Assembly: GCA_041591895.1 (NCBI GenBank)
Contig: JBFHRE010000002.1
Span: 1 to 63,350 of the forward strand
DNA: 63,350 nt
Origin: Acidimicrobiia bacterium
GTDB taxonomy: Bacteria; Actinomycetota; Acidimicrobiia; Spongiisociales; ZC4RG35
Direction: 5' to 3'
The translations under genes were made by a program, and so were the position numbers. The number at the start of each line of letters is the position of its first letter. Within the stretch, counting starts at the first letter, position 1. This document shows, one piece after another, positions 47,497 to 48,630 of this stretch. Under the pieces are notes generated by a model, which did not search any database, was not told where the DNA came from, and saw only the letters and a list, made by a program, of their open reading frames with translations.

Positions 47497-47503
47497 GGGT
47501 GTG

Positions 47504-47509
47504 AGGCTA
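47504..47509 (-). promoter_or_regulatory. possible -10 (TAGCCT) for a leaderless bPH_2/SHOCT mRNA
   Basis: A TANNNT hexamer lies 7 nt upstream of ATG 47496. No Shine-Dalgarno sequence is visible. Confidence 0.3.
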
Positions 47510-47527
47510 CAACGACCAGGATGCGGA

Positions 47528-48043
47528 CGCGAGAAACCCCGAGGGAGCTTTGGCTTGCGCCTCTACCCTCTCGGGGTTCCCACGGACGTCTTCCGCAAGC
47601 GGGAAACATCCAGGACGATCCGGACGGCTCGTGAGAACCGAACCGATCGTCCACCCGACCCCGGCGGCTCGATCCTTGCGGACCCACCACCGCTGCCGGT
47701 GAGCCTTGCGGCCCCCTCCTCGCCCCGAAGGGCTTGGAGCCGACTCCCTGAGGAGTCGGTGACCGTGCTCCGAAGAGCTCGGCCGGCACCTCGGGTCCCT
47801 CCCGTCTCTCAACGCTCGGGGCCTCCGGCGCCATCCCCGTTCCGAAACCGAGGTCTCGGGTCGAGGTGTCTCTGGAATCGGGTGGCGAGCGTTTCCGCAA
47901 CCCCACCGCCCTCCTGAGACCGGTGGGAACCGGATCCTTCGAGGCGGTGAGGCCTCGGCGATCTCCGAATCCCGTCGGATCGATCTCCTGCCCGAAGGCT
48001 GGTGGTCGGTCCGAGCCCCCGGCGGGCGTCCCTACCGGTGACA
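47528..48043 (-). ncRNA. putative long structured RNA (two tandem modules, U1a and U1b), unclassified
   Basis: No credible ORF. On the minus strand: three C(UUCG)G hairpins, three GCAA-capped hairpins and several perfect 7-8 bp helices. It ends in a long hairpin (47535-47578). The weak promoter homologue upstream has -10 TAACTT at 48050-48055. Confidence 0.35.
47535..47578 (-). terminator. hairpin homologous to the 48324-48363 terminator, weak U tail
   Basis: AACCCCGAG / CUCGGGGUU 9-bp base extended by GGG/CCC, capped by GC-GCAA-GC, followed by UUUCUCGCG on the minus strand. Confidence 0.4.
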
Positions 48044-48090
48044 GCACGCAAGTTAGACCATCCAGACGACCGCGAAGCCGGTTTTGGCTG

Positions 48091-48125
48091 GCTCGTTTTC
48101 GCGACGTGCGATTTGTTTTCGCGAA
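48091..48125 (-). promoter_or_regulatory. AT-rich upstream box R1 (copy of R2)
   Basis: Plus strand GCTCGTTTTCGCGACgtgcgaTTTGTTTTCGCGAAT. Aligns with 48545-48585 and sits about -47 to -81 from the putative U1 start. Confidence 0.4.
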
Positions 48126-48310
48126 TACCGGCCTGCGGCCGGCCGGTCCCGGGTCGCGGGTCTCGAGTCCCGAGTCTTTCGAGTCCAGCCTGCCGATACC
48201 GGAACCTTCGTGCCGCATCCGGTCGCCATCACGTGTCGACGGCGCCGGGAGGAACCGAGACGGGCGCGCAGCTCGCGACTCGAGGCCGGCCTCGGCGGCG
48301 CGCCGGGGCC

Positions 48311-48363
48311 AGAAAATGAGAAACCCCGAGAAAGATCCGGCCGAAACCGTCTCCCTCTCGGGG
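48311..48363 (-). terminator. intrinsic terminator of module U2
   Basis: Minus strand: CCCCGAGAGGGA...UCUUUCUCGGGG forms a 12-bp stem (2 G-U pairs), followed by UUUCUCAUUUUCU. Confidence 0.55.
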
Positions 48364-48501
48364 CTCTCTGCGCCGTTCTCCGGCGACCAGGCGAACCTAT
48401 CACCGTGTCCCGACGCTCGCTCCTCGACCTTGCGGTCTTGGTGCGAGGCACCTGTCCCTTGCGGGCCGGTTGCCCCCGCTCCGGGTTTCCCCGGCTCGGT
48501 C
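48311..48501 (-). ncRNA. putative ~190-nt structured small RNA (module U2), unclassified
   Basis: Bounded by a TTGACC-17-TATGTT promoter and an intrinsic terminator. Contains CCGGG-GAAA-CCCGG, CCC-GCAA-GGG, GACC-GCAA-GGUC and CGCCG-GAGAA-CGGCG hairpins. No credible ORF. Confidence 0.45.
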
Positions 48502-48507
48502 AGATGG

Positions 48508-48536
48508 AACATACGGACCCGGCGGCGGCCGGTCAA
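48508..48536 (-). promoter_or_regulatory. sigma-70/SigA-type promoter TTGACC-N17-TATGTT
   Basis: -35 at 48536-48531, exact 17-nt spacer, -10 at 48513-48508 (fits TANNNT). Confidence 0.55.
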
Positions 48537-48544
48537 GCCGATTC

Positions 48545-48585
48545 GCTCGTTAGATTTCGCGACTCCCGTTTTGTTTTCGCGGATC
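48545..48585 (-). promoter_or_regulatory. AT-rich upstream box R2
   Basis: Plus strand GCTCGTTagaTTTCGCGACtcccgtTTTGTTTTCGCGGAT. Two TTTCGCG words lie 20 nt apart. Sits -45 to -85 from the U2 start, between divergent promoters. Confidence 0.4.
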
Positions 48586-48602
48586 GTTGTGAATCACATT
48601 TC

Positions 48603-48624
48603 TGTCATTCGCGATTCGTATAGT
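48603..48624 (+). promoter_or_regulatory. RecA-NDp-like (DNA-damage, PafBC-type) leaderless promoter candidate
   Basis: TGTCAttc-N8-TATAGT compared with the motif tTGTCRgtg-N8-TAnnnT. The -10 ends 6 nt before ATG 48631. Confidence 0.4.
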
Positions 48625-48630
48625 GGACCC

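Follow-up and report, generated by a model that had tools for sequence, protein, structure and literature searches.

The gap between two divergent genes at 47497–48630 of a 63,350-nucleotide (nt) stretch of Acidimicrobiia DNA (contig JBFHRE010000002.1; the whole stretch is called the window here) very probably holds two tandem, separately transcribed noncoding RNA (ncRNA) genes. Both lie on the minus strand, and they would be divergent members of paralogous short and long RNA classes of the Acidimicrobiia. The proximal short unit is referred to as RNA2 (~190 nt) and the distal long unit as RNA1 (~510 nt). Comparative sequence analysis establishes on which strand the units lie, that they are structured and noncoding, to which family they belong and, by homology, the boundaries of the genes.

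The comparison drew on 160 Acidimicrobiia loci fetched through the PD-(D/E)XK nuclease gene that borders the gap, and on seven closer relatives, L161–L167, found by protein-database and contig look-ups. Identity across the gap was 99% for L161, 85–86% for L162 and 50–57% for L163–L167. When metagenomes were scanned with the nuclease protein, none of the relatives recovered was closer than 77%. The nuclease's relatives assign the window to the Acidimicrobiia.

Strand-specific structure and absence of coding

A preliminary description, made by eye, had listed hairpins capped by stable tetraloops on the minus strand of the gap, and every one of them was recovered in place. Counting hairpins with a stem of at least 4 base pairs (bp) and a UUCG or GNRA loop gave 9 on the minus strand versus 1 on the plus. 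Elsewhere in the window, stretches of 1134 nt carry 0.9 ± 1.0 such hairpins (maximum 4), and dinucleotide shuffles 1.3 ± 1.2 (maximum 6). Folding z-scores computed strand by strand were far lower on the minus strand: −7.1 versus −2.2 on the plus strand for 48318–48502, and −6.1 versus −1.8 for 47531–48045. In a sliding fold scan of 44–52 kb the minus-strand signal was confined to 47500–47800 and 48200–48600, with 47900–48300 unremarkable. The earlier proposal of a structured minus-strand RNA thus stands on strand-specific folding, on covariation in relatives (below) and on the lack of any Rfam or protein match.

Coding capacity was considered in the form of either an intact protein gene, for example the 354-amino-acid open reading frame (ORF) at 47472–48536 (minus), or a decayed one. 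Long ORFs do exist here in several frames, and automatic gene callers annotate an ORF of 316–344 amino acids at this place in L161 and L167. However, no frame or long ORF of the gap has a Pfam match, and GC content by codon position is flat in the long ORFs (0.67/0.64/0.70); the flanking PH-SHOCT gene has 0.83 at third and 0.46 at second positions. Six-frame translations of the gap match related loci over the conserved hairpin only and in several frames at once, which marks a nucleotide signature rather than a protein. Any such ORF must also cross two promoters and a terminator, all conserved at the nucleotide level, and substitutions relative to L162 preserve base pairs and tetraloop class. 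No conserved small ORF was seen in the short RNA class. Flat codon-position GC and the missing Pfam matches likewise bear out the earlier view that this is not decayed coding DNA. We give the protein-coding explanation almost no credence, and comparative evidence excludes a conserved protein in the gap.

The public gene calls over the RNA region lie at 1871–2821 (minus) in L161 and at 1308–2342 (minus) in L167, without a Pfam match. They are most likely a false gene prediction spreading through databases, and annotators have reason to stop calling this spurious ORF of ~320–350 amino acids.

Two predicted transcription units

RNA2 comprises the following predicted elements, in the order of transcription.

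48574–48581, minus: upstream box 1, CGCGAAAA, centered at ~−77 from the predicted start
48554–48561, minus: upstream box 2, CGCGAAAT, centered at ~−57, 20 bp from box 1
48508–48536, minus: promoter, TTGACC (48536–48531), 17 nt, TATGTT (48513–48508)
48311–48501, minus: RNA2, ~190 nt, with predicted start at G48501/A48500 and putative ends
48318–48368, minus: terminator, with hairpin 48324–48368, GAGAGCCCCGAGAGGG..CUUUCUCGGGG, then UUUCUCAUUUUCU, near-invariant across the family

The RNA2 promoter was the sole sigma-70-like site found by a scan of 47300–48800, for which shuffles give 0.1. In alignment A2 (51 sequences of the RNA2 unit with its promoter), the box 1 column is invariant or nearly so and CGCGAAA of box 2 is invariant. 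The TTGA of the −35 and the TA of the −10 are also invariant, and the C of TTGAC nearly so. The predicted fold opens with a 5′ hairpin, P1 (48476–48499, GAAA loop), followed by GCAA- and UUCG-capped hairpins and the terminator. A covariance model derived from short-class sequences, R1, scored RNA2 at 57 bits (E 8e-12). The RNA2 body is 86% identical in L162, with differences too few to inform on pairing. L163–L167 retain P1 and the GCAA hairpin but not the center. A MAFFT/RNAalifold analysis of seven RNA2-type sequences of the window's sub-lineage misaligned P1, so that little covariation supports the RNA2 body in its own right.

RNA1 and the spacer that precedes it are laid out as follows.

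48124–48310: spacer from RNA2 terminator to RNA1 boxes, ~190 nt, no conserved or structured feature found
48116–48123 and 48096–48103, minus: two CGCGAAAA boxes, 20 bp apart
48050–48078, minus: predicted promoter, −10 TAACTT (48050–48055), weak −35 GCTTCG (48073–48078)
47531–48045, minus: RNA1, ~510 nt, start predicted at ~48042–48045
47531–47581, minus: terminator, with hairpin 47537–47581, GGGAACCCCGAGAGGG..CUCCCUCGGGG, then UUUCUC

The RNA1 promoter was located from the family consensus and from register with the RNA2 module; the distance from boxes to −10 is 39 nt in both modules. Its evidence is weaker than that for RNA2, because the sigma-70-type promoter scan did not list it. RNA1 is predicted to fold into a 5′ hairpin, P1 (48019–48038), a chain of local hairpins capped by UUCG, GNRA or CUCG, and the terminator. 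The latter is the best-conserved part of the gap, with ~200 BLAST matches in the 160 loci, and R1 scored the 3′ part of RNA1 at 51 bits. Long-class units in 101 loci are arranged in the same way as RNA1. A direct alignment of the RNA1 and RNA2 units matched promoter with promoter and terminator with terminator, and nothing else.

Comparison of RNA1 with L162 (85% identical) was informative on pairing. Among 136 local predicted pairs, 112 were unchanged, 4 were compensatory (null 1.1 ± 1.1), 6 were wobble-compatible (null 12.4 ± 3.3) and 11 were broken (null 21 ± 4). Substitutions affected 11.7% of paired versus 20.8% of unpaired positions. Four tetraloops changed (GAAA to GAGA, GCAA to GAGA, GCAA to GAAA and GGUA to GGCA); all four stay GNNA, and three are strictly GNRA before and after. 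Long-range pairs predicted in the 5′ part of RNA1 found no support from L162.

One large RNA had been proposed in the preliminary description, and a continuous minus-strand transcript of ~1.1 kb filling the gap would agree with the shared strand of both structured blocks, and transcription may run through the first terminator. Yet a complete terminator hairpin with a U-tract stands at 48318–48368 and is followed by a second box-and-promoter module. The intervening ~190 nt are neither structured (folding z of about −1 on both strands) nor conserved (almost no BLAST coverage in the 160 loci). This spacer shrinks to just 19–62 nt in L032, L056, L073 and L046, and across other loci the two units stand 20 nt to 2.7 kb apart, some far enough to hold a gene between them. 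A single RNA is consequently extremely improbable, and two units, each with its own predicted promoter and terminator, describe the gap better.

An RNA family pair across the Acidimicrobiia

BLAST coverage of the gap in the 160 loci was concentrated on both terminators. Weaker coverage was seen over the promoter region of RNA2 and over the ~100 nt immediately upstream of each terminator, and none at 47677–48186, a span that includes the boxes and promoter of RNA1. With nhmmer, the RNA2 unit with its promoter aligned full-length in ~50 of the first 80 loci. Pattern matching found at least one family hairpin in 134 of the 160 loci and exactly two in 102, and 229 of 236 hairpins were opposite in strand to the nuclease gene. 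Promoter-to-terminator lengths were bimodal, with 107 short units (median 144 nt) and 101 long units (median 380 nt).

Both classes share a promoter module of two CGCGAAA(A) boxes 20–21 bp apart, ~16 nt, a TTGAC −35 and a TAnnnT −10. They also share a 5′-terminal GNRA-capped hairpin and a nearly invariant 44-nt terminator, CCCCGAGAGGG..CU(C/U)(C/U)CUCGGGG, followed by a U-rich tail. The short class is predicted to fold into P1 (GNRA or UUCG loop), P2 (UUCG loop), P3 and the terminator. P3 is an extended helix ending in a near-invariant GGGGG-CCCGCU-UUCCC with the nearly invariant core GGGGGCCCGCUUUCCC; the core GCCCGCUU was present in 99 of the 107 short units. The long class has the same P1 and terminator. 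Between them lie a conserved GAUCC-UUCG-GGAUC hairpin, variable GNRA hairpins and, just before the terminator, a conserved CCC-loop hairpin. Its motif CGGGGAUCCUUCGGGAUCGUCGAGCGG, GGGGAU..GGGAUCGUC, was found in 85 of the 101 long units.

Covariation supports both classes. In 42 short-class sequences, 27 pairs change on both sides (shuffles 14.5 ± 1.8, slid controls at most 13), with 90.7% of alignment cells paired. For the long class, 23 of 59 consensus pairs change on both sides (shuffles 15.1 ± 1.7, slid controls at most 11). As far as searched, the family is restricted to the Acidimicrobiia.

Two kinds of repeat accompany the long class. A small CGGGAAACCG-type hairpin is repeated four to five times in the 5′ half of many long-class RNAs (for example L056, 3400–3600, minus); it is absent from RNA1 of the window. 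In L024, L040, L075 and L118, one to three palindromic repeats of G and C runs, such as TGTGAGGGGGGACGACCCCCCTC, interrupt the spacer from the long-RNA terminator to the PH-SHOCT gene, and these are REP-like in appearance.

Place of the window's copies in the family

RNA2 carries the full promoter module, and RNA1 has both boxes and the −10 in register with a degenerate −35. Copies of the terminator hairpin occur at 48320–48363 and 47533–47576, both on the minus strand. The position is also that of the family, between a divergent PD-(D/E)XK nuclease gene and a same-strand PH-SHOCT gene.

The bodies differ. The short-class core GGGGGCCCGCUUUCCC is absent from the window, and R1 aligns RNA2 with a 34-nt P3 segment deleted. 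The RNA1 alignment also deletes P3, so the R1 scores of both RNAs derive mostly from the terminator. The long-class motif CGGGGAUCCUUCGGGAUCGUCGAGCGG is absent from RNA1, which keeps the flanks alone (ACGGGGAU...CGAGCG) around a different insert. On these sequence comparisons, the window's copies are divergent family members with lineage-specific bodies.

Flanking genes and other features of the window

The genes on either side of the gap, with their predicted −10 elements, are listed below.

46900–47496, minus: PH-SHOCT gene, with bPH_2 and SHOCT domains (Pfam)
47504–47509, minus: −10 of the PH-SHOCT gene, TAGCCT, 7 nt before the ATG at 47496
48631–49551, plus: PD-(D/E)XK nuclease gene, followed by a UvrD-type helicase-nuclease gene
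48619–48624, plus: −10 of the nuclease gene, TATAGT, 6 nt before the ATG at 48631

In most of 77 loci the ATG of the PH-SHOCT gene follows TAnnCT after ~7 nt, a layout that points to a leaderless mRNA transcribed from a promoter of its own. The nuclease mRNA is probably leaderless as well; the layout (TATGAT, 7 nt, ATG) also occurs in L056, the window and L056 being the two cases compared.

These layouts bear on whether RNA1 and the long class could be a cis-acting 5′ leader of the PH-SHOCT gene (a riboswitch or attenuator), with the conserved hairpin as a regulated terminator. In 77 loci the PH-SHOCT gene does come next after the long RNA on that strand, at a median gap of 75 nt and at 36 nt in the window. 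Nevertheless, the gene has its own conserved −10 (TAGCCT or TAGGCT) at ~7 nt from the ATG, and between terminator and ATG lies a spacer of variable length (36–372 nt) into which unrelated repeats have been inserted. The short class, with the same promoter and terminator, precedes another promoter and not a gene. The terminator has a long, perfect, invariant stem; no anti-terminator pairing was seen as a conserved alternative, and no riboswitch family was matched in Rfam. Given the conserved leaderless −10, the variable spacer and the short class without a downstream gene, a leader is very unlikely and the long RNA is better read as a separate gene.

The gap had also been called by far the largest noncoding interval of the window. 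A crude screen by third-position GC and Pfam did not confirm this, as other stretches of at least 1 kb without a Pfam match remain at 27.2–28.5, 55.9–57.0 and 2.1–3.1 kb, with long ORFs in them. The region 27350–27700 has low folding z-scores on both strands (−5.3 plus, −3.8 minus) and a perfect palindrome, CCTCCTGATGG/CCATCAGGAGG, at ~27441–27468. It overlaps an ORF without a Pfam match (27246–28559, minus) downstream of an MttB gene. The sole Rfam match at gathering in the window is PYLIS_3 at 26637–26736 (plus; 38.6 bits against a threshold of 38). It falls within the uninterrupted MttB-family ORF 25698–27206 (Pfam MTTB, 4e-73). Since it lies inside this ORF, which has no in-frame UAG, the match reflects coding-sequence similarity and not a pyrrolysine insertion element.

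Proposed mode of action and its weighing

We consider two abundant, co-regulated, trans-acting RNAs the likeliest account of the pair. One DNA-binding protein would read the shared CGCGAAAA boxes of both units, and RNA1 and RNA2 would on this basis be regulated together. The conserved promoter, 5′ hairpin and terminator suggest that the RNAs should be stable and abundant. In the main classes, the conserved C-rich apical loop beside the terminator (CCCGCU in the short class, CCC in the long class) would most likely be the working part. Such a loop could base-pair with ribosome-binding regions rich in G, in the manner of actinobacterial 6C-type RNAs. The RNAs may instead bind a protein. The window's copies have no C-rich loops, and the proposal is least certain as to how these copies act.

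Several points weigh against the account of two family members acting in this way. Start sites and 3′ ends are predictions from sequence. RNA1 has a poor −35, and the folding of its first ~150 nt does not exceed chance. For the RNA bodies of the window itself, covariation comes mainly from a single informative relative, L162. The window's RNAs are without the defining core motifs of the main short and long classes, and their membership would rest on promoter, 5′ hairpin, terminator and genomic position. Trans-acting base pairing is a presumption, no target having been identified.

Finally, the near-invariance of the terminator suggests a further role outside this account. The hairpin is almost identical, base for base, in paralogues and species whose RNA bodies diverge, which suggests that it is also a recognition element. 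One unlikely possibility is that the short and long RNAs go beyond ordinary riboregulation: the 3′ hairpin (44 nt, with a purine-rich internal loop) and the conserved 5′ hairpin would form a handle for a dedicated protein, with a fast-evolving body between them. The lasting divergent pairing with AdnAB-like nuclease and helicase genes might then point to a link with DNA-end processing; or else the long RNA could be the polymerase-binding RNA of the lineage.

Taken as two tandem RNA genes, the gap helps to define a pair of related RNA classes, represented by more than 200 examples, that have clear promoters and terminators and share an upstream DNA motif. Their hosts, the Acidimicrobiia, abound in microbial communities of soil, sea and wastewater. 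The CGCGAAAA boxes offer an entry point to a regulon via the factor that reads them, and terminator conservation near the level of single bases alongside diverging bodies is unusual.

Comparison with known RNA families and systems

The RNA family pair is absent from Rfam release 15 and was not found in the literature. No Rfam match at gathering was obtained in the gap or in 14 related loci, in agreement with the earlier impression that no known family is present. At E ≤ 10 the window and related loci gave chance-level matches and nothing relevant, the models compared including 6S, Ms1, raiA, 6C and riboswitches. Literature searches returned no paper describing these RNAs or any Acidimicrobiia small RNAs, and a search for the box motif returned E2F sites and primers only. 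The CGCGAAAA boxes at 20-bp spacing match no regulator site that could be named. A mobile element was considered for the gap and rejected, as no phage, plasmid or viral contig matched it.

A 6S/Ms1-like or raiA-like RNA had been suggested at the outset. We know of no 6S or Ms1 RNA described in the Acidimicrobiia lineage, and we take the 6C and Ms1 genes to be neighbors in M. tuberculosis. On such a model, the long RNA would bind RNA polymerase, functionally like 6S/Ms1, and the short RNA would be a 6C-like partner, as an echo of the adjacent mycobacterial 6C and Ms1 genes. Ms1 is an RNA of ~300 nt with a 6S-like central bubble, flanked by genes for a HAD-IB hydrolase (phosphoserine phosphatase) and an oxidoreductase, and 6S/Ms1 RNAs form a long rod closed between 5′ and 3′ ends around a central bubble that resembles an open promoter (PMC9130861). 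The long class is close to Ms1 in size (300–500 nt), and the strong conservation of its promoter and terminator suggests an actinobacterial ncRNA that is abundant, stable and strongly transcribed; the paper cited for Ms1 and 6S does not mention Acidimicrobiia (PMC9130861). In contrast, no Rfam match to 6S, Ms1 or 6C appeared at a cutoff as loose as E ≤ 10. Minimum-energy and consensus folding both predict chains of local hairpins, with neither a closing rod nor a central bubble. The neighborhood also differs, with PH-SHOCT and PD-(D/E)XK nuclease genes at the flanks. We therefore regard a polymerase-binding pair of this kind as highly doubtful, and raiA is likewise unmatched at E ≤ 10. Two tandem genes of a separate family remain the preferred reading.

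The RNAs resemble raiA, OLE, HEARO, GOLLD and ROOL in being multi-hairpin, GNRA-rich, several hundred nt long and found by comparative analysis. They differ in lacking an Rfam match, and the long class conserves only a few short motifs between variable hairpins and shows no complex multi-stem junctions or pseudoknots. 6C RNA (Rfam RF01066) is likewise an actinobacterial small RNA of stable hairpins, and the conserved C-rich apical loop beside the terminator of the main classes could pair with G-rich targets in a similar manner. In contrast to 6C, there is no Rfam match and there is one C-rich loop rather than two, within a larger molecule of other architecture; the window's own copies have none.

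Paralogous pairs and sets of bacterial small RNAs that share promoter boxes include OmrA/OmrB, PrrF1/PrrF2, Qrr1–4, GlmY/GlmZ and RsmY/RsmZ. To our knowledge, the host lineage of the window has neither Hfq nor ProQ. The pair described here is like OmrA/OmrB and its counterparts in having tandem or nearby paralogues, shared upstream regulator sites, a Rho-independent terminator and diverging bodies. It has no sequence or structural homology to them, and it stands apart by one unusually long paralogue (300–500 nt) and by a terminator that is almost invariant across a whole bacterial class.

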